A stretch of DNA of 64,000 bases from Thermoanaerobaculia bacterium. Its GTDB lineage: Bacteria; Acidobacteriota; Thermoanaerobaculia; Multivoradales; Multivoraceae. Below the pieces are notes generated by a model, which was given only the letters and a program-made list of their open reading frames with translations, did no database searches and was not told where the DNA came from. The position numbers and the translations under genes are program-made. The stretch is from positions 5,952,001-6,016,000 of the forward strand of contig OY761158.1 in NCBI GenBank assembly GCA_963664405.1, given 5' to 3'. How positions within the stretch are numbered: the first letter of the stretch is position 1; each line of letters begins with the position of its first letter. This document shows, one piece after another, positions 32,573 to 62,472 of this stretch.

Positions 32573-32689
32573 CTTTCAGAAATGATGAATATCATTTCCG
32601 AAAGCTAGTTTCTGTTTGGCGCCGAGGACGGCGCACTTAGGCGTTGCTTCTTATTCGCTCTGGGAAACGGCTCTGGCCGAATACTCGGA
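32569..32689. repeat. Extended REP-like unit, interrupted at its 3' end by an IS1111-type end
   Basis: 40-bp palindrome at 32569-32608, second hairpin, and a tail homologous to 18568-18689. Confidence 0.85.
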
Positions 32690-32922
32690 TGATGAAATGG
32701 ACTCCCTGGCGACTTCGATCGGCATCTGTGTGCCGCGGGTCGCCCAAACCGAAACTCTAGTACTGGAAGGGAGCCCCATGAAGCATACCGTTATCGGTGT
32801 CGACCTGGCCAAGGATGTGTTCGAGATCGCCGTGTCGCATGAGCCGGGAAAGGTGGCGGACCGGCATCGAGTCCGAAGAGCTGGCTTTTTGTCTTTCTTC
32901 GCACAACGCAAGCCCACGACGA
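32690..32922 (+). mobile_element. IS110 family (IS1111 group) left end and truncated transposase
   Basis: tgatgaa-ATGGACTCCC (7 nt, then a subterminal IR-like motif); RBS; ATG at 32778 giving MKHTVIGVDLAKDVFEIAV (IS110 GxDxxK motif). Only about 48 codons remain. Confidence 0.75.
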
Positions 32923-33593
32923 TTGAGCTACCGGTGCCGTTTGGCCCCAAGGCCCGCCTAGTACAGATCCACCTCGATACCGAAGCCATACGAACCCAGT
33001 GCCCCGAAATCGAAGTTGAAGACAGCATGACAGCCTTCGCTTCAAGCATTCTGGGATACGAACCCAACGGTCGGGAGCTTCGCGCCCTGAAAACACAGCT
33101 TGGTTCCCTTTCAGCCGCCACCATTCGCATAGCCAACACCGGGGATAAGCCGTTCCAGATCCAAACACACATCGTCTCAGCTTTCGACATCTGGTTTCCG
33201 AAGGACGCGAACCAGCGTGTTCTATGGCCCTCCGTGATCAAGCTCAGCTCTGACTACTACCAAACACTGATTGACCACGCCGTACCGCTCGATCCTCGCG
33301 CCGTTGCTGCTCTTTCCCACAGCGCAATGGGTCTCAGCATCTATTCGTGGCTGGCGCAGCGCCTGTGCCGCGTCAACCACAAACGCTCCTCTTTCGTTGC
33401 ATGGGCCAACCTTTGGGAGCAGTTCGGCCCGAACTACAAGAAGATCTTTAAGTTCCGCCAGGTCTTCAACGTCGCCCTGAAACAAGTGCTCAGCCAGTAC
33501 CCGCACGCAGAAGTCACTGTCAACGCGCACCGGGGCCTCACCCTTCATCATTCGCGGCCACCGATCGAGCGCGTTGCCTTGGTCCGTCAATAA
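32923..33593 (+). pseudogene. repA: IncW/pSa-type replication initiator RepA (RepA_C family), N-terminus missing
   Basis: VPFGPKARL..TEAIRT, LWPSVIKLS, VPLD..AL..S.MGLSIYSWL and W..L..QFG..Y motifs. Fused in frame to the IS110 fragment. Confidence 0.8.
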
Positions 33594-40450: not shown

Positions 40451-40699
40451 GCGGAGGATTGCCTGAAGATATGTTGGGGATTATGGCATTGTCACGTTAA
40501 GGAGAAGGATCTCGCAGAGTCCCGCGAGGCAGGAGGTTCGTCGTCGCGCGGATCTACCCGAGCGGGATTCTGCTAGACCTGGCTTGAGCGGAGGCCGCCA
40601 GGCAGGCGTTCGTGTATGGGGATCTCAGCGTCGTAGGCAGGCTGTGCTGCGCGCGATGGGCCACAGTGAGGGGATGGTGCGGCGTTTTTTCGGTGCCCA

Positions 40700-41084
40700 T
40701 AGTCTACGGCCCGGCGCCAGCTTCTGGTTTCGACAGCGGCAGTCGCCGACATCAAGTTCACCCGGCTCTCTGAGAACCGCTTCATTGTCAACCATCGCAA
40801 GCAGTCAATGCTCGGCGCCGAGGCTAAGGCGATGAAGACCCTGTACAGCGAGGGTTGCATCCATCTGCATCGCTGCTGGCTACTCGCACTTCGAACTTGT
40901 GACCCAAGACGTGCAAGAGCGCAGCCATGGCGGCCTGTGGGGTGGTGGCCGCGGTGCCTCTGGCACCGTTGATGTAAAGATGCGCAACGAGGCAGGCGAG
41001 GACCACATCGAGTGTGCCCCGCTGGCCGACCCAAAGAAGGTAGGGGTGGCCAAGAAGAAGCTGGCGAACGGCGAGTTGGGGTGA
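40700..41084 (+). pseudogene. Frameshifted hypothetical protein remnant
   Basis: Protein-like text ADIKFTRLSENRF..ASICIAAGYSHFE..KKKLANGELG spans frames. Confidence 0.35.
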
Positions 41085-41425
41085 TCGCAGCCGTGACCGG
41101 AGTGGCAGGGGGCGCGCCGCGAACTGAGGATTGGGCGCCGGGATAGTGCAGTGTCGCCTTGCGTATCGCTTTGGCCGCCGCCGCCGGCACGACGATCCAA
41201 CCGCGCTTGCCGTCCCGGTCCACGGCCTCTGTGTCCAGAATCACGACGCTCGCCGCGTCCGCCGACTTGTGCCAGGCGAGGGTTAGCCTGATACCCTGGT
41301 TACGCCTCACCGGCCTGGTTACGGGTGTTGCGCCTCACCGGGGGTGGTTGCAGGTTGCCCGAGCCCCTATCTGTCCGCGCGAATCGTCGCTTTGACCGGG
41401 CAGGGGTTCCCACGGCCAGCGAGCA

Positions 41426-41446
41426 TATCTTGATTGATAATTACCT
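41426..41446. promoter_or_regulatory. lox-like half-site plus spacer at the recombinase start
   Basis: tatcttgattgata-attacc-t is identical over 21 bp to the reverse complement of the 45082-45117 site. Confidence 0.7.
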
Positions 41447-41448
41447 TT

Positions 41449-42414
41449 ATGCTTCATACAACACCGACCGAACCCGCCGCCCTCGCCCGACGCCCCGACA
41501 CGGTGGGGCCGCTGGCCGGCGCCACGCCGACCACGCGCCGGCTCGCCGACGCCTCTATCAGCCTCAACACCCGACGGGCCTACCTCGGCGCGCTGCGGCG
41601 CTTGGACGCATGGCGCGGGGCCGCCCCGGTTGACGACGCCTCGCTGGCCGTCTACCTCGGCGAGCTCTTCGAGGCGGGCCGCGCGCCCGCCACCGCCGCC
41701 CTTGCCGTCGCCGCCGTCCGGTTTCGGGCCAAGCTCGCCGGCCAGCCGGACCCCGCCGGGGAAGCGACCGCCCGCGTGTTGGGCGGCTACCGTCGCACGG
41801 CCGCCGACCGGGGCCGGGGCCAGGCCGCCCCGCTGAGCGCGGACGGGCTCGCCGCGATTCTCGCCACCGCCGAACGTCCCCGCACCGACGGCCGGGGCGT
41901 CGAATCCCACACCACGGCGCAACGCCGGGGCCGACTCGACGCCGTGATCGCCTCGCTGTTGTTCATGGGCGGGTTGCGCCGCTCAGAAGTGAGCGCGCTT
42001 GAATGGCGTGACGTGTCGGACGCCCGCGACGGCGACGGCGTGCTTATCACCGTGCGGACCTCGAAAACGAATCAAGAGGGGGACGCCGCCGACGTGCGGT
42101 ATCTCAAAAACGGCGCGGCGAAAGCGATCCGCACCCTTCGCGCCGCCGCCGCCGCCGCCGCACCCACGGATCGGGTGATCGGGTTGTCCCCGCTACAGAT
42201 TCAGAGAAGGTTCACCGCCGCCGCCCGCGCCGCCGGCATCGAGGCGCGCTTGACGGCGCACAGTGGCCGGGTCGGGCTCGCGTCCGAACTGACGGCGCGC
42301 GGCGCGTCGACAACCGAAGTCATGCTGGCCGGCAACTGGAAAACCGCCCGCATGGTCGCTCACTACTCGGCCGGCGCGACCGCCGAACGCGGGGCCGTCC
42401 GAAAGTATCTGTAG
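41449..42414 (+). CDS. Cre-like tyrosine recombinase
   Basis: NTRRAY, GLRRSE (R), SKT (K), AHSGR (HxxR), GNW (Trp as in Cre) and HY (Tyr) motifs. Confidence 0.88.
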   Translation: MLHTTPTEPAALARRPDTVGPLAGATPTTRRLADASISLNTRRAYLGALRRLDAWRGAAPVDDASLAVYLGELFEAGRAPATAALAVAAVRFRAKLAGQPDPAGEATARVLGGYRRTAADRGRGQAAPLSADGLAAILATAERPRTDGRGVESHTTAQRRGRLDAVIASLLFMGGLRRSEVSALEWRDVSDARDGDGVLITVRTSKTNQEGDAADVRYLKNGAAKAIRTLRAAAAAAAPTDRVIGLSPLQIQRRFTAAARAAGIEARLTAHSGRVGLASELTARGASTTEVMLAGNWKTARMVAHYSAGATAERGAVRKYL

Positions 42415-42427
42415 GGAGGGAGTCACG

Positions 42428-42673
42428 ATGTTCGACACGCACACCATCGCCCGCACGTTGACCGACGCGGGTATCGACCCGAAGCACGCCGACGCCATCA
42501 CCGACGCCGTGCGCCAAGCCGCCGAGCATAGCGAACACGTTACGCCAGAGCACCTTGATGCGGCCCTGGCCGCCATTGAAGCTCGCCTGACGTGGCGCTT
42601 CGCTGGCGCGATACTGGCGCAGACCATCGCCATGCTCGGTGGGATGGTCGCCATCCTGCGGTTGCTCGGCTGA
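42428..42673 (+). CDS. DUF1640-like small coiled-coil membrane-anchored protein
   Basis: MFDTHTIARTL..AG....A.AI start; C-terminal hydrophobic helix; RBS ggagg. Confidence 0.7.
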   Translation: MFDTHTIARTLTDAGIDPKHADAITDAVRQAAEHSEHVTPEHLDAALAAIEARLTWRFAGAILAQTIAMLGGMVAILRLLG

Positions 42674-42734
42674 TCCTTGCAGGTCCGGACGGTGTGGTCG
42701 AAGTCAGGTGGCCACGCTCGACTAGACTCTCGCC

Positions 42735-42941
42735 ATGAACATTTCTCAGTTGCCCAAGAATGACCGCGTGACGCTCGTCAAGAAGGACGGGCAACGGTTC
42801 GAGGATCTGTCCGCGTCAGTTCAAACCGGTCTGATATTGACGTACAACCAGGAAATCCCGATTGAGGATGGCGACCAGTTTGAGCGACAACTGCCGAGCG
42901 GGATTGTTGACGTTTACACCGTGGTGGACTCTTGCGAATGA
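42735..42941 (+). CDS. Hypothetical protein, probably truncated
   Basis: 68-aa beta-rich ORF with lower GC that ends abruptly. Confidence 0.4.
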   Translation: MNISQLPKNDRVTLVKKDGQRFEDLSASVQTGLILTYNQEIPIEDGDQFERQLPSGIVDVYTVVDSCE

Positions 42942-43049
42942 AACAGGAGAACCTCATAAAGTTTCAGGTTTCTGGACTGGCACTGGCGATGGCGATGGAG
43001 TGTGGGTGAGAATCGGGATCGATGGCAAGGTGTTGACCCTCCGGGCAGG

Positions 43050-43317
43050 CGGCACGGCTTGCCACTACTCGAGGCGATGGCGTGCGGTGTGCCGGTCATC
43101 ACGTCGAACACGTCGTCCATGCCCGAAGTGGTGGGTGGTGCCGCAATACTCGTCGATCCGCACGACGTCGATGAGATGGCTGCCGCGATCACCAGGGTGT
43201 TGTCCGACGAGGCGCTGCGCGACCGCCATGCGAGGCGAGGGCATCGCCCGCGCTGGACAGTTCTCGTGGAAAACGGCAGCGCGTCAGACGTTGAACGCGT
43301 ACGCGTCTCTCGGCTAG
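43050..43317 (+). pseudogene. GT4 glycosyltransferase C-terminal fragment
   Basis: GLPLLEAMACGVPVITSNTSSMPEVVG, then a frameshift to FSWKTAARQTL. Confidence 0.8.
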
Positions 43318-43392
43318 CGGTGATAGTTGCGTCGTATCGGGAACATCTGAATTTGTGACGGCTGGAACTCTAGGGACGGCACCGACAGCAAA

Positions 43393-43555
43393 ACCACATC
43401 AACACCACATCAACACCACATCACTCAGGAATTAACGCCACGGTCACACCACGGTCACGCCACGGTCTCAGGAGGAAGTAACAGCGGCGGTCGGACGCGA
43501 CGAACAGGGCACGCAAAAGGACATTCAAAACCACATCACTCAGGAATTAACGCCA
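43393..43555. repeat. Phased 11-bp repeats and a 26-bp direct repeat
   Basis: ccacatca at 43394, 43405, 43416; ccacggtc at 43438, 43449, 43460; accacatcactcaggaattaacgcca at 43415 and 43530. Confidence 0.8.
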
Positions 43556-43659
43556 GCAACGTCTCAAGCGGGCTGATCACGGTCATGTCACGCGCCGATT
43601 TTCCTGTTGGTGAACGCTACCCGGCGGGTTCAGTTGGGCAGTTGAAGAGCTGCCAGTTC

Positions 43660-44832
43660 TCAGGGAACGGGCGACGGCTTCTCGACGTATCTCATCTCGG
43701 GATAGTCGTAGTCAGCCGGCAAGGTGAGCCCTTGCTCGGGCATCACGCTCAAGAAGTTGTCGTGTGCGACCTTGATCGCGGTCTCCGGTTGGAGCCTCTC
43801 GAACAGCTCTTCGAATCTTCGGATCTCCTGCTTGTATCCTCCGAACCTACCGACGACGTCGGAGCCGACCATAAAATTGCCCGGGTACTTCTCGATTAGA
43901 GAGGCCCAGCCCTCCAGGTCGCTCAAGACATAGTCGGAGAACACGACCCAAGACAAGTCGATGTAAACGTGGTCCGCGTGCGCTTCCAGAATTGCGGCGA
44001 GAAGATCGGTAAGACCTTCGACCACGATACGCCTGCTGATACCACCATGGCAGAGGATGAATCTGGTATCTGCGAAAACGTTGAAGGTGTTGAGCAACTC
44101 CGGTAGATAGACGGGCTGCTTCGGTTCTCCATTCGGAGAGATCGCGGCAATGTTGTGATGGATGCTCACCGGAATGTCGAACTGCCCCGCAAAATCGAAG
44201 ATCCGGAACAAGGCTGGATGGTTGGCTCTTGGTCTGGTTCCGATGGTGAGGTTCGTGAGGTCATCGTGCCGAGACATGAGCTCTCCGATACCCTGAAATA
44301 GGCCGGGGAACTCCTTCATCCGTTTGACAATCATGTCGACGGCGCCAAGATCCGTAGTATCCACACCGGCAACGAAAGGATGCAGCCGCTCGAGTTGTGC
44401 TCCGGCTTCCCCACCGTGCGACAGCCTGTAGTCCTCAATCGCAAGGGCGACCGTGTAGTCCGTATCGCGCGCGGGGACCACTCTCGAACTGCTGTCGAGA
44501 TAGTAGGCGGGCCGAATCGGGTCGTTTTCCGACCACTTCTTCAGAAATGCCAATCCGCTGACCATGGCGTGCTGGACCCCAGCCCTGTCCATCGCCCAAA
44601 GCAGGGCTTCGATCCGCTTGCCGCGCTGGCCAACAGTAAGCGTGGCCTGCGGAGAGCTTGCCACCAACTCGCCGTTCTCCAGGAAGTCACCGTTCTGCAG
44701 GAAGTCGACCAGATGAACATGGGCGTCGTTGATAGGCAGCTCACGAGCCTCCTGGGGGGCGACGGGACTCCCTGGCACTAGTGCGGCGGCCAAAGCCGCA
44801 ACAGCTACTTCCACCCTTCCTAGTCTTCGCAT
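43660..44832 (-). CDS. Amidohydrolase family protein, secreted
   Basis: DAHVH, GIGE, SIHH, CHGG and GSD metal-binding motifs; signal peptide. Confidence 0.82.
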   Translation of the reverse strand: MRRLGRVEVAVAALAAALVPGSPVAPQEARELPINDAHVHLVDFLQNGDFLENGELVASSPQATLTVGQRGKRIEALLWAMDRAGVQHAMVSGLAFLKKWSENDPIRPAYYLDSSSRVVPARDTDYTVALAIEDYRLSHGGEAGAQLERLHPFVAGVDTTDLGAVDMIVKRMKEFPGLFQGIGELMSRHDDLTNLTIGTRPRANHPALFRIFDFAGQFDIPVSIHHNIAAISPNGEPKQPVYLPELLNTFNVFADTRFILCHGGISRRIVVEGLTDLLAAILEAHADHVYIDLSWVVFSDYVLSDLEGWASLIEKYPGNFMVGSDVVGRFGGYKQEIRRFEELFERLQPETAIKVAHDNFLSVMPEQGLTLPADYDYPEMRYVEKPSPVP

Positions 44833-45081
44833 AGCTTCTTCCGTCCGGGGTTGGTGGGATTCTACCGGGAGAACCGCTCGGGTACGCTAGAATCAATTAG
44901 ACCCTTTCCCAACAGGCAGGTGACCTATGAGGTTCCCGCACCGGGCGCAGGCTTTCCTGCGCTCTGGGCGGGCGGGAAAGATGGAGATCTATCTCGGAAA
45001 CCTACGCGCAGTCGATGACACCTCCGTGCCTCTCGAAGGGGAGATCTAACGCAAGGGCCGGACACGCTACGGAGCGACGAG

Positions 45082-45117
45082 CTATCTTGATTGATAGGTA
45101 ATTATCAATCAAGATAG
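45082..45117. promoter_or_regulatory. Perfect lox-like palindrome
   Basis: CTATCTTGATTGATA-ggtaat-TATCAATCAAGATAG: perfect 15-bp inverted arms around an asymmetric spacer; AT-rich. Confidence 0.8.
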
Positions 45118-45179
45118 GCGGACGTGTCAAGCGGTGATTTTGACTTTTAATAGGCTGGGCTGTCTTATAGGGTATTGCT

Positions 45180-45413
45180 ATGTCTACACCTACAGAACGG
45201 CGATACCGACGTGAGGCGCGCTACTCGAAACAACTGCGCGTGACAGTGGAACCGGCGACGGCGGCGGCACTGGAAGCGGAAGCGGACGCGGCGGGCGTGT
45301 CCGTCTCGGCGGTGATTCGTGACGCGGTTGCGCGCGGGTTGCCGCTGGTAAAAGACGCCCGGCGGAAACAGCGGCAACGCGACCGGCACGCGGCCGGCGC
45401 GGGTGAGGCGTGA
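45180..45413 (+). CDS. CopG/ribbon-helix-helix-like regulator
   Basis: QLRVTV strand followed by AALEAEA..GVSVSAVIRDAV helices. Confidence 0.7.
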   Translation: MSTPTERRYRREARYSKQLRVTVEPATAAALEAEADAAGVSVSAVIRDAVARGLPLVKDARRKQRQRDRHAAGAGEA

Positions 45414-45830
45414 TCGCCTGGACCGACGTGGAAGCGGCGTTACAGGGGCGGCCGGGCTGGCGGCGCGTCGGGCGCGAATATCACGGGCCGTGTCCGGTGT
45501 CCGGCGCGGGCCGTGATTGTTGCTTCGCGTCGGAAGGGCGAGCGGGGGACGTGGCACTCGGGTGCCGGAAGTGCGGCGGGAACGGCGGGAAACTCGATAG
45601 CGAGTCGTTCCTGGCACACCTGGCCGCGCTGGTAGGCGAGACGGCGCGCCACGTGGCCGCACACGCGACGAACGACCGCGCGGCCATAGCAAAAAACCGT
45701 CCGCGCTGCCGGGGCGCGCCTGGCGGGCGTCTGAGCCCGTTGACGGCACACCCGGCGCGCGCTATGTGACGCGGCGCGGCGCGTGGCCGGCCGGTGAACG
45801 GTTCCCCGCGTCGGTGCGCTGGCTGCTTGC
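45410..45830 (+). pseudogene. Primase-type Zn-binding N-terminal fragment
   Basis: GTGA overlap; REYHGPCP..D..GCRKC motif; frame then breaks down. Confidence 0.55.
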
Positions 45831-46130: not shown

Positions 46131-46379
46131 CTAAATCCGTGGGTTTTCATGTAACAGGGGACCGCTGTTGGTGCGAGGCAGGCTGCACAGCGCCATCGTT
46201 CGCGCCATAAAGCCTAGATCGGCGTCCGCTTCGCTGGCCGAAACAAGCTGGTTCACCTGGTCGAAGCGGGTGAAGTGGTGTAGCGCCTGGGGCGAGGCAT
46301 CGCGGATCGCCTTCACCGGCCCGTTCAAACCAGATACGACTTCCGCAACGGGAACCAAGCTGCCGCGTTGACGCTGCAT
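46131..46379 (-). pseudogene. Second RepA-family initiator, N-terminal fragment
   Basis: HHFTRFDQVNQLVSASEADADLGFMARTMALCSLPRTN resembles the G[FY]MAR region of IncW-type RepA; truncated. Confidence 0.6.
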
Positions 46380-46452
46380 GCCTTTATTCTCCCATGTTCC
46401 ACTGCTATGTTCGCCGGTTGATCCCGTCTTCGTCACGGCTTCGGAACTCACG

Positions 46453-46719
46453 TCAAGCCGCGTCCTCCCGCTTCCGCGCCAGCGCCAGTTCGTAGGCCGC
46501 CTGAACGCGCATCCAGTGATCCGCATCTCCCCAACCAATGCGCTCCATCGCCAGCGCCAGCCGGGGAGAGATTCCGATATGGCCATTGAGCAGCCGTGAA
46601 AGCGTGTTCCTCGCCATGCCGAGACGCTGGGCGCACTCGGTCACGGTCCAGCCCACATCTTCATCCTCCAGGATGTCTCGGATCATTTCGCCGGGGTGCG
46701 GCGGTGCGTACATAGGCAT
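46453..46719 (-). CDS. higA: HigA-family antitoxin (XRE HTH)
   Basis: PPHPGE, A..LG..R.TLSRLLNG..GISP.LA and W..VQ..Y.L motifs. Confidence 0.9.
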   Translation of the reverse strand: MPMYAPPHPGEMIRDILEDEDVGWTVTECAQRLGMARNTLSRLLNGHIGISPRLALAMERIGWGDADHWMRVQAAYELALARKREDAA

Positions 46720-46730
46720 GGGCTCCCTCC

Positions 46731-47003
46731 TCAGTGGTAGTCGATCAAATCCACGTCCACCGCCTCGCCATCGGCAAAGCGAAAGACGATTCTCCAGTTC
46801 CCCGAGACGCGCACGCTCCAATCGCCGCGCCTGTCTCCCTGCAACCGATGCAGGCGATAGCCGGGCCGGTCCATCTCTGTCGGTGAAAACGCCACGTCCA
46901 AGTCAATCAGGATGCGTCGGATGCGCCGCACATGGGCCGGGTTCAGCCGCCGGGCATTGTCTTGCTCATACAAGCGCTTCAATCCCGCGTGCTTAATCCT
47001 CAT
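46731..47003 (-). CDS. higB: HigB-family RelE-type toxin
   Basis: IKHAGLKRL and PGYRLHRLQGD..WSVRVSGNWRIVFRF..DYH motifs; toxin-first gene order. Confidence 0.9.
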   Translation of the reverse strand: MRIKHAGLKRLYEQDNARRLNPAHVRRIRRILIDLDVAFSPTEMDRPGYRLHRLQGDRRGDWSVRVSGNWRIVFRFADGEAVDVDLIDYH

Positions 47004-48295: not shown

Positions 48296-48787
48296 GTGCG
48301 CCGCCGTCCCGATTGTCGCCGTTTCGTTTGCGATCGTTGCCGGCAAGCTGTCTACATTTGCTCTTGGTGCGATCGCGGCCATCGTTATTGCACGCCGGAG
48401 TGCCGGGATGAGGCTCGGCGCCACAGCCTTCGCGGGGCCGGGCGTCGCTATCAGCAGACGCCGCGAGGGCGCCGCTTGCATGCTCGTCGTCAGCAGGCCT
48501 ATCGAGATCGCAAGCAGCAAGGCTCAAAGAAAGTGACGCATCACAGTTGCCGCACCGGGGGCTGCCCTGCGACGGTGGCGTCATGGCCCACCGCGCCGCT
48601 TCCGTTGTTTTTGCAAGGCTTGTCCGTTGGAGGTCGGAACGAGGAGCTTCTCTGCAGGCTGTGCCGCCATCCTTGCGAGCCGATTGTCCGCCACGACTTC
48701 TTGCGATCGCGCCGAGTACGCCCGGTGCGCAGGCGGGCGCGGGATGATCTCTCCCGAGCTCGCCGCCGAGATCCGCCGTCTCTATGA
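48296..48787 (+). CDS. Cys/Arg-rich putative Zn-finger protein (IS21 accessory ORF1)
   Basis: CDRC-x6-CSWCDRGHRYC..EC, RYQ..H.RRQ..YR, KVTH, C-terminal CRLC; RBS aaggagg before GTG. Confidence 0.75.
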   Translation: MRRRPDCRRFVCDRCRQAVYICSWCDRGHRYCTPECRDEARRHSLRGAGRRYQQTPRGRRLHARRQQAYRDRKQQGSKKVTHHSCRTGGCPATVASWPTAPLPLFLQGLSVGGRNEELLCRLCRHPCEPIVRHDFLRSRRVRPVRRRARDDLSRARRRDPPSL

Positions 48788-50243
48788 GTCGGAGGGCTGG
48801 CGGCGCAACACGATCGCCCGCCATCTGGGAATCCATCACTCGACGGTCACTCGAGTCCTTCGACGCGAAGGGCTGAGCCGGCCTCGATCGCCGCGACGAG
48901 CGTCCATGGTCGATCGCTTCGTCCCCTTCATCCAGGAAGTCTTTGAGCGCTACCCGGAGCTGCCGGCGAGCGTGCTCTACGAGATGGTCAAGAAGCGTGA
49001 CTATCCCGGTGGGGAGGATCACTTCCGCCACTGCATTGCCGAGCTCGGCCTGCGCCCCCGCAAGGCGCCTGAGGCTTTCTTTGTGCTCCGTACGCTTGCC
49101 GGCGAACAGGCCCAGGTGGACTGGGCTCACTTCGGCACCCGAAAGGTCGATGGCGGAGAGCGCCGTCTCTACGCCTTCGTCATGGTGCTGAGCTACTCGC
49201 GAGCTCTCTTTCTGCACTTCTTCTACGACGCTCGTCTGCCGAGCTTCCTGACCGGGCATGTCCTCGCCTTCTCCTTCTTTGAGGGTCTGGCCAAGATCCA
49301 CCTCTACGACAATCTGCGCAGCGCTGTGCTCGAGCGGCGCCGCAGCGCCATTCGCTTTCATCCACGGCTTCTCGAGCTCGCCGACTTCTACGGCTTTGAT
49401 CCAAGGCCCGTTGCTCCCAGACGAGGAAATGAAAAAGGTCGCGTCGAACGAGCCATTCGTTTTGTCAGAACTTCCTTCTTTCCGCTGCGTCGCACCTGGG
49501 ACAGAGAAGCGCTGAACCGGGACGCTCTGGAGTGGTGTCGCGACCGAGCGATGAAGCGCCCGTGGCCCCAGGACCGGCGTCGCACCGTCGAGCAGGCCTA
49601 TCTCGAGGAGCGCTCTCATCTCGTGAGCCTTCCGGCGCAGCCTTTCCCCTGCCACGAATGGGTCGAGCGGATCACGCGGCGCACTCCTTACCTGAGCTTC
49701 GATGCGAATCGCTACTCGATCCCGCATGATCGCATCGCCCGCTCGCTACAGATCGCCGCAGACCCGGAGCGTGTGCGCATCTTCGATCGCGAGCAGCTCA
49801 TCGCCGAGCACACAAGGTCCTGGGACAAGGGCCAGATCATCGAAGACCCCCGTCACCTAGAAGAGCTGGAACGACAGAAACGCGAGGCACGTACACAGCG
49901 CGGCCAGGACTACCTGCTGCGTACGGTGCCCCAGGCCGAAGAGCTCCTGCGGGAGCTGGCCCGACGGCAGAGACGACTCTCGAGTGCCGTCGCCAGACTC
50001 CTCGAGCTCCTTGCCGAGAGTGGACCCAGGGAGCTTGCAGTGGCGATCGACGAGGCCCTCGAAAAAGGATCCCCGCATCCCGAAGCGGTGCGACTCATCC
50101 TCGATCGTCGGCGCCACGAGCGGGGACTCCTACCCGCGCTGCCTGTCCAGCTCCCCGACGATCCCAGGATCCGGGAGCTCACGGTCACTCCCCATGCACT
50201 GGCCGACTACGACAACCCCAACGACGAGGAGGACGACGAATGA
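48744..50243 (+). CDS. istA: IS21 transposase IstA
   Basis: N-terminal HTH; DDE motifs QAQVDW, YDN and KGRVER. Confidence 0.93.
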   Translation: MISPELAAEIRRLYESEGWRRNTIARHLGIHHSTVTRVLRREGLSRPRSPRRASMVDRFVPFIQEVFERYPELPASVLYEMVKKRDYPGGEDHFRHCIAELGLRPRKAPEAFFVLRTLAGEQAQVDWAHFGTRKVDGGERRLYAFVMVLSYSRALFLHFFYDARLPSFLTGHVLAFSFFEGLAKIHLYDNLRSAVLERRRSAIRFHPRLLELADFYGFDPRPVAPRRGNEKGRVERAIRFVRTSFFPLRRTWDREALNRDALEWCRDRAMKRPWPQDRRRTVEQAYLEERSHLVSLPAQPFPCHEWVERITRRTPYLSFDANRYSIPHDRIARSLQIAADPERVRIFDREQLIAEHTRSWDKGQIIEDPRHLEELERQKREARTQRGQDYLLRTVPQAEELLRELARRQRRLSSAVARLLELLAESGPRELAVAIDEALEKGSPHPEAVRLILDRRRHERGLLPALPVQLPDDPRIRELTVTPHALADYDNPNDEEDDE

Positions 50244-51013
50244 ACAACACCGACCAAGAGCGTGCCACAGCCCTGAAACTCCATGGCCTCCTAGCCCACT
50301 GGGATGAGGTCGCCAACCAACCCTGGCTCCCCGACCTGCTCGACTGGGAAGAGCAGGAGCGAGCCCGTCGCGGACTGGAGCGACGCCTGGGTCGGGCCCG
50401 GCTCGGCACCTTCAAGCCGCTGGCCGACTTCGACTGGAATTGGCCCAAGAAGATCGACCGCGAGCAGATCGAAGATCTCTTTCGGCTCGAGTGGCTCGCC
50501 CGAGGGCACAACGCTGTCTTGATAGGGCCAAACGGCATCGGCAAGACGCTCATTGCCAAGAATCTCGCCCATCAAGCCGTACTACGTGGAGCCACCGCCC
50601 GATTCCTCACCGCCTCGGAGCTGCTCAACACCCTCGCCGAACAAGACTCCTCGACCAGCCTTCAGCGCAAGCTCGCGCTCTTTGCGCGCCCATCCCTGCT
50701 CTGCATTGACGAGCTCGGATATCTGTCCTACGACACGCGCCACGCCGATCTACTTTTCGAGGTCGTTTCCCGCAGGTACGAAAATAAGTCCCTTCTCATC
50801 ACCACAAACAAGTCCTTTGGAGAATGGGGAGAGGTCTTCCCCAACGCTACTACCGTCGTCACCATCGTCGATCGCCTCGTCCATCGCTGCGAGCTCGTCA
50901 ACATCGAGGGCGATTCCTATCGGCTCAAGGAGTCCAAGGAGCACGCCAAGAAGCGCGCTTCGGCCCGCCGAAGCGGCACTCGCCCTCGACGGCGCAGTGC
51001 GAAGACCTCGTGA
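50240..51013 (+). CDS. istB: IS21 helper ATPase IstB
   Basis: Walker A GPNGIGKT, Walker B IDELG, TTNK, DRLVH, SYRL. Confidence 0.95.
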   Translation: MNNTDQERATALKLHGLLAHWDEVANQPWLPDLLDWEEQERARRGLERRLGRARLGTFKPLADFDWNWPKKIDREQIEDLFRLEWLARGHNAVLIGPNGIGKTLIAKNLAHQAVLRGATARFLTASELLNTLAEQDSSTSLQRKLALFARPSLLCIDELGYLSYDTRHADLLFEVVSRRYENKSLLITTNKSFGEWGEVFPNATTVVTIVDRLVHRCELVNIEGDSYRLKESKEHAKKRASARRSGTRPRRRSAKTS

Positions 51014-59803: not shown

Positions 59804-60199
59804 ATGCGACCGGACTACCGACTCTTCGACTGTGCTCGATGCCGTCGGCGTATCTCGCTGTGCTCGCACTGTGACCGTGGCCAGCGTTACTGCCGGGCTT
59901 GTGCTCTGGTGGCTCGTCGGGAATCGACTCGGGCGGCCGGCCATCGGTACCAGCGAAGCCTCCGAGGTCGGCATTGTCATGCCGCCCGTCAGGCCCGCTA
60001 CCGTCGGCGCCAGCGCGAGCGGGCAGAGAAAGTGACGCATCAGGGTACCCCAGGCGGTACTTCGGGGAGGACACTGTGTCGGATCGAGACTCCGAGGCGC
60101 GAAGTGCGCTACGACCCGAGGAATCCGCGATGCATGCAGTGTGGAGAGGCCTGCCGAGAGTTTGTGCGAACGAGCTTTCGTCGTTGCCGACGGAGATAG
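59804..60199 (+). CDS. Cys/Arg-rich putative Zn-finger protein (IS21 accessory ORF1)
   Basis: CARC-x6-CSHCDRGQRYC..C, RYQ..H..RQ..YR, KVTH, C-terminal CMQC; RBS ggagg. Confidence 0.78.
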   Translation: MRPDYRLFDCARCRRRISLCSHCDRGQRYCRACALVARRESTRAAGHRYQRSLRGRHCHAARQARYRRRQRERAEKVTHQGTPGGTSGRTLCRIETPRREVRYDPRNPRCMQCGEACREFVRTSFRRCRRR

Positions 60200-60203
60200 G
60201 GGC

Positions 60204-61712
60204 GTGATCGACGCACAGCTGCGCGGGGAGATCCGTCGTCTGTTCCTGGTCGAGAAGTGGAAAGTCGGCACGATCGCTCGACAGCTACAGCTGCACCCCT
60301 CAACCGTGCGCCGGGCGCTGGAGAAGTCCGGCGTGCTACCCCAGCAGCGACGAGGGAGGATGATCGATCCTTACCTGCCGTTCATCGAGCAGGTGCTCGG
60401 GACCTACCCACGACTGCCGGCGAGCCGTCTCTACACCATGGTGGTGGAGCGCGGCTATCCAGGAGGCCCGGATCAGTTTCGCCACCTGGTGGCCTCGATG
60501 CGACCGAAGCCCCAGCGCGAGGCGTTTCTCTCGCTGCGCATGCTGCCAGGAGAGCAGGCGCAGGTCGACTGGGGCCACTTCGGTCGGCTCCGCGTCGGCC
60601 GGGCACATCGTCGGCTCTATGCCTTCGTCTTCGTGCTGTCGTTCTCGCGCACGGTCTTCGTGCACTTCACCCTCGACACTCGTCTCGAAACCTTCTTGCA
60701 CGCTCACCAGCTGGCCTTCCACTACGTCGACGGCGTCGTCAGGACCGTTCTGTACGACAACCTGCGAACCGCGGTGATCGAGCGGCAGGGAACCGCGGTG
60801 CGCTTCCATCCCGTGCTGCTCGATTTCGCCAGCCACTACGGCTTCCTTCCCACCGTCGCCGCGGTGGCTCGGGGAAATGAGAAAGGCCGCGTCGAGCGCG
60901 CAATCCGCTTCCTGCGAAGCTCGTTCTTCGGCGCCCGAACGGTGAGCGATTTGGATCGTCTGAATCGGCAGGTCCTGGAATGGTGCCAGAGGTCGCAGCG
61001 CAGACCCTGGCCGCAGGACCGACAGCGAACCGTGAAAAGCGCCCTGGCCCAGGAACGACCTCGACTGCTTGAGCTTCCCGGAGACGACTTCGAAACCGAC
61101 CTGCGACTGGAGATCAAGGTCAGAAAGACGCCGATCGTGCGCTTCGACCTCAACGACTACTCGGTGCCGCACAGTCATGTGCAGAGGACCGTCACGCTCC
61201 TCGCCAGCGAGCATCGGGTGCGGATCCTCGATGGCCAGGAGCTCCTCGCCGAGCACCCTCGCTCGTACTCCCGGGGCGAGCAGATCCTCGATCCTCAACA
61301 CCTCGAGGAGCTCCTCGCTCACAAACGCAGGGCCCGACGACACCGGGGCTTCCATCGGCTGTTTTCCGCTGTGCCTCGATGCGAAGAGCTGATGCAGCAG
61401 CTCGCCGAGCGAGGCGAGAACCTCGGAACGCAGACCGCCGGCCTGCTCCGACTCCTGCGCCAGTACGGCCCCCAGCGACTCGACAAAGCCGTGCGCGAAG
61501 CGCTCCTGAACCACGCACCGCGATTCCAGTCCGTCCGGCTCCTACTCGAACGGCACCAGCGCGGCCTCGGTCAGCCCCCGGCTTTACCGGTGCCGCTCAG
61601 CCAGGAGCTCCAACAGCGAGATCTCTCCGTGAGACCGCACAACCTCGAGGACTACGACCAACTTGGAGGCAACGACGATGGCCCGACCCAGGAAGAGTCC
61701 AACGATCCCTGA
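60204..61712 (+). CDS. istA: IS21 transposase IstA
   Basis: HTH; QAQVDW, YDN and KGRVER motifs. Confidence 0.93.
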   Translation: MIDAQLRGEIRRLFLVEKWKVGTIARQLQLHPSTVRRALEKSGVLPQQRRGRMIDPYLPFIEQVLGTYPRLPASRLYTMVVERGYPGGPDQFRHLVASMRPKPQREAFLSLRMLPGEQAQVDWGHFGRLRVGRAHRRLYAFVFVLSFSRTVFVHFTLDTRLETFLHAHQLAFHYVDGVVRTVLYDNLRTAVIERQGTAVRFHPVLLDFASHYGFLPTVAAVARGNEKGRVERAIRFLRSSFFGARTVSDLDRLNRQVLEWCQRSQRRPWPQDRQRTVKSALAQERPRLLELPGDDFETDLRLEIKVRKTPIVRFDLNDYSVPHSHVQRTVTLLASEHRVRILDGQELLAEHPRSYSRGEQILDPQHLEELLAHKRRARRHRGFHRLFSAVPRCEELMQQLAERGENLGTQTAGLLRLLRQYGPQRLDKAVREALLNHAPRFQSVRLLLERHQRGLGQPPALPVPLSQELQQRDLSVRPHNLEDYDQLGGNDDGPTQEESNDP

Positions 61713-62472
61713 CGAACCACTACGAGAGCTCGCCCGATCCCTCGGCTTCTACGCCCTCGTCGACGACTGGGGCACCTACCGAGAACAGCCCTGGCTCGAA
61801 CAGCTGCTGCGCAAAGAAGAGGCCGAGCGCAAACGGCGCAGCCTCGAACGGCGCATCCGCACCAGCCGCGTCGGGCTCTTCAAGAGCATCGCCGACTTCG
61901 ACTTCTCCTGGCCCCAGCGCATCGACCGCGAGCAGATCCAGGATCTGCTCACCCTCCAATTCCTCGACGACATCACCAACGTCATCCTCCTCGGACCCAA
62001 CGGTGTCGGCAAGACCATGATTGCCAAGAACCTCCTCTACCAGGCGCTGCAACGAGGGGCCACCGCCAGCTTCGTCACCGCCTCCGACATGCTCAACGAT
62101 CTCGCCGTCCAGGAAACCCCCTCGGCGCTCCAGAGAAGGCTCTCCAAATACACCCGACCCTCGCTTTTGGCAATCGATGAGCTCGGCTATCTCTCCTACG
62201 ACCACCGCCACGCGGATCTCCTCTTCGAGGTCGTCTCCAGGAGATACGGCAACAAGCCCATTCTTCTCACCACCAACAAGCCCTTCGCCGAATGGGCCGA
62301 GGTCTTTCCCAACGCCTCCTGCGTCGTCACTCTCGTCGATCGACTCACCCACCACGCCGAGATCGTCAAGATCGAGGCTAACTCCTATCGCCGCAAGGAG
62401 GCCAAGGAGGCTGCTGAAAAAAAGGCCAAGGACCGCGCCAAAAGGCGGAGCGCAGCACGACGACGCTCATGA
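61678..62472 (+). CDS. istB: IS21 helper ATPase IstB
   Basis: GPNGVGKT, IDELG, TTNK and DRLTH motifs. Confidence 0.95.
   Translation: MARPRKSPTIPDEPLRELARSLGFYALVDDWGTYREQPWLEQLLRKEEAERKRRSLERRIRTSRVGLFKSIADFDFSWPQRIDREQIQDLLTLQFLDDITNVILLGPNGVGKTMIAKNLLYQALQRGATASFVTASDMLNDLAVQETPSALQRRLSKYTRPSLLAIDELGYLSYDHRHADLLFEVVSRRYGNKPILLTTNKPFAEWAEVFPNASCVVTLVDRLTHHAEIVKIEANSYRRKEAKEAAEKKAKDRAKRRSAARRRS

Follow-up and report, generated by a model that had tools for sequence, protein, structure and literature searches.

The window analysed here is a stretch of 64,000 nucleotides from the genome of a Thermoanaerobaculia bacterium (assembly GCA_963664405.1, contig OY761158.1, positions 5,952,001 to 6,016,000 of the forward strand); coordinates below are those of the window unless a genome or contig is named. 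It contains an intact gene for a Cre-type tyrosine recombinase of 321 residues (41449..42414, + strand; Pfam PF00589, Phage_integrase). A short sequence found directly before the start codon of this gene occurs again, in inverted orientation, within a perfect palindrome on the far side of the gene. A sequence-only reading of the locus had proposed that the recombinase is Cre-like, that the palindrome is its cognate site, and that the DNA between the two copies can be flipped. We report here that the enzyme is indeed of this class, and that its target is probably a lox-like site embedded in its own promoter and start codon.

All six catalytic residues expected for the protein (R-K-HxxR-W-Y) were recovered when it was aligned to the Cre motifs. 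In an alignment of 28 sequences, with relatives 38-97% identical, H271, R274, W297 and Y306 show no variation, and R177 and K206 almost none. The pairwise alignment with P1 Cre extends over residues 37-321 at 23% identity, and the only relatives of solved structure detected by sequence were 17 Cre and Tre sequences, with an E value of about 3e-4. An AlphaFold2 model was obtained from the 28-relative alignment (predicted local distance difference test, pLDDT, 88.1; predicted template modelling score, pTM, 0.79) and submitted to Foldseek. Among the rows listed, ranks 1-28 were all Cre or Tre chains, with template modelling (TM) scores of 0.68-0.75 over about 320 columns, and XerA, the integron integrase (IntI) and lambda Int ranked below these chains. 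The proposed likeness to Cre is therefore supported by residues, pairwise alignment and fold and, judging from the model, the recombinase is a Cre-type enzyme with the two-domain Cre fold and without an arm-binding domain. No NCBIfam model scored above its cut-off for any of seven proteins, recombinase included.

Two sites have to be distinguished. The regular site, S1 (41426..41461, + strand), is composed of a 14-nt left arm, TATCTTGATTGATA (41426-41439), an 8-bp spacer, ATTACCTT (41440-41447), and a weak right arm, TATGCTTCATACAA (41448-41461), which matches the left arm at 7/14 positions and contains the start codon of the recombinase. The second site, S2 (45082..45117, no strand), is the palindrome. 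It is perfect, as had been described: 15-nt arms, CTATCTTGATTGATA (45082-45096) and TATCAATCAAGATAG (45103-45117), complementary at 15/15 positions, surround an asymmetric 6-nt centre, GGTAAT (45097-45102), and the right arm corresponds to the arm of the regular site that is proximal to the promoter. The copy of arm and core in the opposite orientation before the recombinase ATG proved longer than claimed. It forms with S2 a 24-nt inverted repeat, in which 41423-41446 (+ strand) pairs with 45096-45119 at 23/24 positions (96% complementary), and which is made of two flank bases, the left arm, ATTACC and one T.

With 3 mismatches or fewer allowed, the 14-nt arm has 5 matches in the window against 0.95 expected, and none of 100 shuffles reached 5. 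Three copies are exact, namely the two palindrome arms and the copy before the recombinase; at one mismatch or fewer, these are also the only three in the 6,780,313-base genome, where a reversed control pattern gave 0. The arm search covered 5 genomes (G001, G002, G003, G004 and G000) and revealed no second perfect palindrome; the only other full site found in them is imperfect (11/14), on contig C11 of G002. An origin of S2 by hairpin, snap-back or antiparallel exchange was considered and discarded on theoretical grounds: outside the 15-nt arms, neither flank is an inverted copy of the other.

At S1, a -10-like GATAAT (41436-41441) stands 7 nt before the ATG (41449) and there is no Shine-Dalgarno sequence, which suggests a leaderless start for the recombinase. 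No matching -35 was found upstream of this -10-like box. On G002 contigs C11 and C10, a 90%-identical gene is preceded by TTGACA, 18 nt, GATAAT, 7 nt, then ATG. In both, the promoter spacer is occupied by the arm, TATCATGATTGATA, which extends into the -10, and ATTACCAT is found between the -10 and the ATG. When the site is read as 14-8-14, its second arm consists of TATG and the ten coding bases that follow. Altered versions of arm and spacer also precede the gene in G001b (89% identity) and in G403 (69%). What had been taken for a half-site, with an operator or a scar as alternatives, is rather a regular site whose weak second arm lies inside the first codons.

Dyad symmetry was scored at fixed geometry, with p values derived from shuffled arms. 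It was highest in G264, whose recombinase is 44% identical (spacer ATTACACT, 12/14, p 0.0001), and at a free-standing site at 26.2 kb on G002 C11 (spacer ATTACAGT, 11/14, p 0.0003). Lower values were obtained for G403 (9/14, p 0.007), for S1 of G002 (9/14, p 0.009) and for G001b (8/14, p 0.02). The protein N-termini differ among the G264, G403, G002 and G001b relatives, so that coding constraint does not explain the symmetry. A free scan for 14-N(6-8)-14 repeats near the start was also applied to 23 loci; most of the 43-46% relatives stayed at chance level (8-10/14), meaning that a promoter-embedded site is not shown for the whole family. Inverted repeats with an 8-bp spacer occur in G264 and at the 26.2-kb site of G002 C11. 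In the window, S1 has the 8 bp but a symmetry of 7/14, and the perfect palindrome has 6 bp. A search of viral contigs with the 20-nt arm and spacer pattern gave one match, in a coding region of an AT-rich phage contig devoid of recombinase, which was judged to be a chance occurrence.

We then compared the pair to known systems. P1 Cre serves in replicon multimer resolution. It shares with the present enzyme the fold (TM 0.75), the R-K-H-R-W-Y residues and an alignment over nearly the whole length, and both systems are carried by plasmid replicons and have a single, simple inverted-repeat site near the recombinase gene; the job of keeping the replicon monomeric is likely shared as well. The layouts differ. 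According to the P1 annotation, the lox centre is about 435 bp before cre, with three separate promoters between them, whereas in the present system the -10 overlaps with the site, the spacer is located between this box and the ATG, and the second arm forms part of the coding sequence. Arm sequences differ as well from those of loxP, and only the right arm of G264 resembles the lox repeat (9/13).

A likeness was also found with SloxP, a 13-8-13 site with GATA/TATC inner arms and spacer ACTGTAAT, which is reported to be recombined by SCre in cells (Suzuki and Nakayama 2011, PMC3082901). We located the native SloxP on NC_008573 (Shewanella sp. ANA-3 plasmid 1). Taken in the other orientation, its arm and spacer agree with S1 of G002 at 16/21 positions, and its spacer is the 8-bp spacer of the 26.2-kb site of G002 C11. 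Inner arm, spacer and plasmid location are thus shared with a site described as experimentally recombined (PMC3082901). Differences also exist: the gene taken as SCre encodes a Cre-like protein (31.5% identical to Cre) that is 25% identical to our recombinase over 208 residues, SloxP is about 4.2 kb from this gene and not at its start codon, and its spacer has 8 bp where the palindrome of the window has a 6-bp centre. Two further tyrosine recombinases, mutually 75% identical, are encoded on NC_008573 (255,706-256,788 and 203,946-204,968), one of them 3.5 kb from SloxP, opposite SCre.

These comparisons uphold one part of the cognate-site claim. The arm and ATTAC spacer travel with the recombinase in other genomes and resemble the recombined SloxP, but the perfect palindrome is atypical, and the conserved site is the asymmetric S1. 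The arm ends in GATA beside the spacer, in keeping with the G(T)-A-T(G)-A motif that active Cre-type sites are reported to carry next to the spacer (Jelicic et al. 2023, PMC10250229). The same article outlines a search for palindromes within 1 kb of a Cre-like gene, with 13-15-nt arms and an 8-bp spacer, which yielded about 500 pairs (PMC10250229). Following that outline, the pipeline would miss S1, given its 7/14 symmetry, and would reject S2, whose spacer is 6 bp and whose distance to the gene end is 2.7 kb. A palindrome search around a recombinase can choose the wrong partner, as the conserved site is here the asymmetric one. No description of the enzyme or of the sponge plasmids was found in the literature, the supplementary pair list of PMC10250229 being outside this search.

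The promoter of the recombinase is found at S2 (45101..45130, − strand; TTGACA 45130-45125, 18 nt, GATAAT 45106-45101; 11/12 matches). It sits on the right arm of the palindrome, and no other sigma-70-like site was found in 41300-45300. It reads leftward, away from a gene for a ribbon-helix-helix (RHH) protein of 77 residues (45180..45413, + strand; Pfam RHH_1, weak TraJ/NikA likeness) and towards a gene for an amidohydrolase of 390 residues (43660..44832, − strand), now the first gene downstream of it. The same unit of -35, arm and -10 precedes the recombinase in G002 C11 and C10. With blastn, the segment 18478-18783 of G002 C11, comprising the RHH gene, the intergenic promoters, the arm and the spacer, aligned to 45409-45097 of the window, and the segment 18764-19755, comprising the arm, the spacer and the recombinase, to 41426-42414. 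The two pieces overlap in arm and spacer, in opposite orientations. If 41447-45095 is turned around, the right side regains the plasmid layout and the palindrome stays on the left. Compared at the sequence level, the window differs from the plasmid layout by exactly one inversion, with its crossover inside the shared 24 bp. As for the flipping of the segment, the two copies are placed exactly as one 3.65-kb inversion predicts, but no second orientation was seen in contigs. A single X12 contig joins 44965 to 45082.

Breakpoints were compared between 7 copies of the gene (window, G002 C11, G002 C10, G001a, G001b, G438 and G416), all at least 82% identical and intact at the 5′ end. The -35 is kept in 2 of the 7; elsewhere, homology ends at differing points within or at the edge of arm and spacer. 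It begins mid-spacer in G416 and at the last spacer base in G001a, the outer four arm bases are changed in G001b, which has a 6-bp spacer, and the arm of G438 is degenerate. Junctions made of the arm and a partial spacer were also found without the gene (G002 C8 and G416), and the comparison of G174 with G264 gave the same breakpoint pattern in a distant branch. This clustering of breaks within about 22 bp before the start codon, a position at which a break deprives the gene of all its expression signals, appears to fit site-specific exchange better than random rearrangement. On a 2.2-Mb contig of G001 (C4), two recombinase copies 89-90% identical are present in direct orientation, 18.7 kb apart (449,658-450,620 and 468,367-469,329), with a different junction before each ATG.

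Several remnants of plasmids are present in the window: a full RepA_C gene (32616-33593), a RepA remnant (46131-46586) recognised by DNA likeness to the RepA_C regions of G002, and a HigB/HigA-type toxin-antitoxin pair (46453-47003). Two IS21 copies (48627-51013 and 60141-62472) and IS256-type elements are found as well. About 5 kb past the window end (own genome, C1:6,021,179-6,021,250), the last 24 codons of the recombinase (92% identical) adjoin ParA, and this fragment precedes the sequence that usually lies downstream of the gene in other genomes. Together, these are remnants of one or more integrated plasmids, and the locus represents a decayed plasmid within the chromosome. Another recombinase piece, of 75 residues (68% identical), is found inside a longer open frame at C1:2,631,225-2,631,443. 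The G002 contig C11 (Bryobacterales, 52 kb) carries two RepA_C genes, ParA, transposases and defence genes, and looks like a plasmid. It has a second, free-standing site, and in G003 and G403 only the gene-proximal copy or copies were found.

Relatives of the recombinase are numerous. A word-indexed search gave 1,908 of them among 8,000 scored candidates; the best 120 of these 1,908 are 87-97% identical and all come from ENA assemblies, two being also in NCBI. An exhaustive search gave 5,744 clusters at E 1e-3 and 429 at E 1e-30, many of which are fragments. In species-representative genomes, copies about 90% identical were found in metagenome-assembled genomes (MAGs) labelled Terriglobia and Bryobacterales, and more distant ones in other sponge-associated lineages. 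In a class-level sample, 6 of 401 genomes matched at E 1e-40, and in the phylum of the window 11 of 401 matched at E 1e-30 (G000 included). The JGI metagenome contigs contained no close copy and 2 distant relatives only (46% and 29% identity), and no relative above 40% identity was found in the PLSDB plasmids (30 records at E 1e-5, 185 at E 0.1).

Abundance was estimated from the Logan contigs of four sponge runs over 40800-45800, as summed depths, which mix organisms and are not copy numbers. Across the four runs, the recombinase gene (41468-42469) reached 960-495,000, the RHH side 214-64,000, and the 40800-40966 segment 0-20. Values for 42470-44974 were 0-130, except in bins of two small open reading frames (one run) and of iteron-like repeats, both described below. 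The depth of the recombinase gene was about 100 to several thousand times that of the adjoining chromosomal DNA. Such differences across the segment mean that the gene and its neighbours do not travel as one unit. Added to the identity of about 90% across MAGs and to the more than 1,900 relatives, the high depth in sponges indicates that the gene marks a plasmid backbone moving widely between sponge symbionts and rearranging at the site. A minimal mobile cassette, consisting of site and gene, was suggested by the G002 homology ending at the stop codon; it was rejected on the grounds that the gene has no arm behind it and that its downstream context is of two recurrent kinds.

The explanation that we favour, with a probability of about 0.6, is that of a Cre-type enzyme of RepA/ParA plasmids of sponge symbionts, with a lox-like target in its own promoter and start, and of an inversion between S1 and S2 that flipped the segment. 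The recombinase would be part of the RepA/ParA plasmid backbone, very abundant in sponge-symbiont communities, and of its chromosomal remnants. Its target would consist of 14-nt arms around a spacer beginning with ATTAC, 8 bp long in most relatives. The strong left arm would stand between -35 and -10, the spacer would run from the -10 to the ATG, and the right arm would be formed by the start codon and about four codons; binding by the enzyme and the cleavage positions are predicted from this anatomy. Because each replicon has one site, next to the Cre-type gene of a RepA/ParA plasmid, the likely job would be the resolution of plasmid multimers and cointegrates. As the site contains the promoter, self-repression through promoter occupancy is implied, and as the crossover point lies between promoter and gene, any exchange would hand the promoter to other DNA. 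In this chromosome, S1 would have exchanged with the inverted second site, S2, presumably by action of the recombinase itself, with the consequence that the 3.65-kb segment was flipped relative to the plasmid layout. The recombinase now keeps the -10 only, and the promoter and the RHH gene flank the amidohydrolase side.

Several observations weigh against this proposal. Protein identity to Cre and SCre is only 23-25%, so that the likeness of the sites could be partly convergent. In the window itself, the 7/14 symmetry of S1 has a p value of 0.11. The S2 centre has 6 bp compared to 8 bp in the sites of most relatives, and recombination between unequal spacers is not expected from Cre-type enzymes. 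MAFFT placed a 2-nt gap in the S2 spacer and likewise in that of G001b, also of 6 bp; an enzyme tolerant of 6-8 bp would account for this, as would a loss of 2 bp from the site that locked the flipped state. The divergent arrangement of RHH gene and recombinase was seen at only one other locus. In G003 and G403, which have the gene-proximal copy only, no second site matching their altered arms was found. Finally, no opposite-strand joint at 41446/45096 was present among the listed joints of 4 runs, in contigs, which drop minor forms.

Alternatively, it may be that the arms are operators or oriT-type repeats of the RHH protein and govern the two divergent promoters or nicking, the recombinase acting elsewhere and the 24-nt copy resulting from an unrelated rearrangement. 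RHH proteins typically bind short repeats, and the palindrome is 62 nt before the RHH start and overlaps the promoter. The protein weakly resembles NikA (E 3.4e-4) and TraJ (E 1.8e-4), two proteins that bind to oriT repeats, and on G002 C11 its homologue (93% identical over 56 residues) and the recombinase are divergent neighbours around the regular site. However, the scores for TraJ and NikA fall well short of the curated cut-offs, and no relaxase family was returned by Pfam scans of the neighbouring open reading frames. The sequence-only reading had envisaged that the palindrome might track with the RHH gene rather than with the recombinase; in G002 C10 and G001b, arm and spacer precede the recombinase and the RHH gene is missing. 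In G264 (44%), a 12/14 repeat occupies the same place, tblastn with the RHH protein of the window found no relative, and no listed open reading frame stood out as an RHH protein (these frames were not scanned with Pfam). Moreover, the site resembles SloxP, a recombinase target, and the RHH protein could use a separate inverted repeat of 5 bp that the two -35 boxes make up (45126-45146). We consider it unlikely that the arms belong to this regulator.

Another rival reading is that of a working reversible switch, in which the recombinase flips the 3.65-kb segment back and forth and thereby places now its own operon, now the amidohydrolase under the outside promoter (phase variation). The two inverted sites have identical arms and identical first seven spacer bases, the promoter just outside the segment reads into whichever end faces it, and the recombinase is intact. 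In switches of the FimB/FimE-fimS type, a tyrosine recombinase acts on two inverted sites and the target of a promoter is set by orientation. Unlike these, the promoter is here outside the flipped segment, the 3.65-kb segment carries the recombinase, and only one orientation was observed, no opposite-strand joint being listed in the 4 runs (rare variants are dropped by contigs). In the present orientation, the recombinase lacks a -35 and the state looks locked. The S2 spacer is 2 bp shorter than that of S1, and no such flanked segment was found in any related locus examined. All this makes a working switch rather improbable.

A bolder proposal, which we regard as equally doubtful, is that sponge-symbiont plasmids use the Cre-type enzyme as a self-limiting device for gene capture and expression, with an integron-like logic and a lox-type chemistry, the amidohydrolase being one such capture. 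It derives from the position of the crossover between a strong promoter and a leaderless gene, by which every exchange would silence the recombinase and put the DNA of the partner site under the promoter. If true, plasmids crossing phyla in sponges would capture and express genes through lox-type exchange. Finally, that the 24-nt inverted repeats are the ends of a 3.7-kb transposon, with the recombinase as transposase, is very improbable: repeats matching at 23/24 positions do flank a recombinase-carrying segment, but no direct target duplication lies outside them (CCAGCGA left, GGACGTG right), the homology to plasmid contigs begins at the left end but continues past the right one, into the promoter and the RHH gene, the interior does not travel as a whole, its summed depth in the sponge runs being about 200-fold below that of the recombinase gene, and no second copy of the 3.7-kb unit was seen in the genome.

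For the Cre-type system that we propose, a parallel to the position of the site is offered by TnpI/irs of Tn4430 and Tn5401, where the site is described as immediately upstream of the gene and containing promoters, with expression modulated by recombinase binding; site I of Tn3 res is likewise presented as both promoter and crossover point (PMC7157771). The common feature would be a tyrosine-recombinase resolution site directly upstream of its gene, with a promoter inside. In contrast to TnpI/irs, Pfam scans of the neighbouring open reading frames returned no Tn3-type transposase, no accessory direct repeats or direct arm copies are found beside the core, and the protein is Cre-like by fold.

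The locus is a new instance of a Cre-like/lox-like system, which stands out by its promoter- and start-codon-embedded site, its natural inversion and its abundance across sponge symbionts. Being Cre-type, at 23-25% identity to Cre and SCre, and having a putative site unlike loxP, the enzyme is a candidate for an orthogonal recombinase in genome engineering, and the spacer variants of 6 bp and 8 bp found in nature constitute a ready-made test of spacer-length tolerance.

The remaining features of the locus were also inspected. Two small open reading frames, co-directional with the recombinase (42428..42941, + strand), encode proteins of 81 residues (weak CCDC90-like match) and 68 residues (no family). 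The same pair occurs, without recombinase, at 1,285,347-1,285,849 of the genome. In this other locus (C1:1,284,745-1,285,849), the window segments 40721-41188 and 42429-42931 (97-98% identical) are joined directly, and 42 other bases replace 41189-42428, that is, the recombinase gene in full together with the site and the 237 bp upstream. Further downstream is a C-terminal remnant of a group-1 glycosyltransferase (43002..43358, + strand), which matches only positions 106-169 of a 172-position profile.

Iteron-like short repeats follow (43388..43555, + strand), made of ACCACATCA units and CCACGGTCAC units, with a 31-nt repeat at 43410/43525. The iteron motif CACTCAGGAATTAACGCC and its neighbours are also found after the recombinase gene in G416, in G001 and in metagenome contigs, and the joints 42412->43373 and 42412->43526 in metagenome contigs link the gene end to the iterons. 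These repeats (43388-43470 and 43525-43555) may be a plasmid origin or partition site.

On the RHH side, the two divergent promoters have their -35 boxes arranged as an inverted pair, GTCAA-11 nt-TTGAC (45126-45146), which is conserved in G002 C11. This pair is a candidate operator for the RHH protein, which may regulate the divergent promoters. At the other end of the locus, about 170 bp (40495-40666) correspond to a dispersed repeat present at no fewer than, that is at least, 6 other places of the genome, with 85-93% identity.

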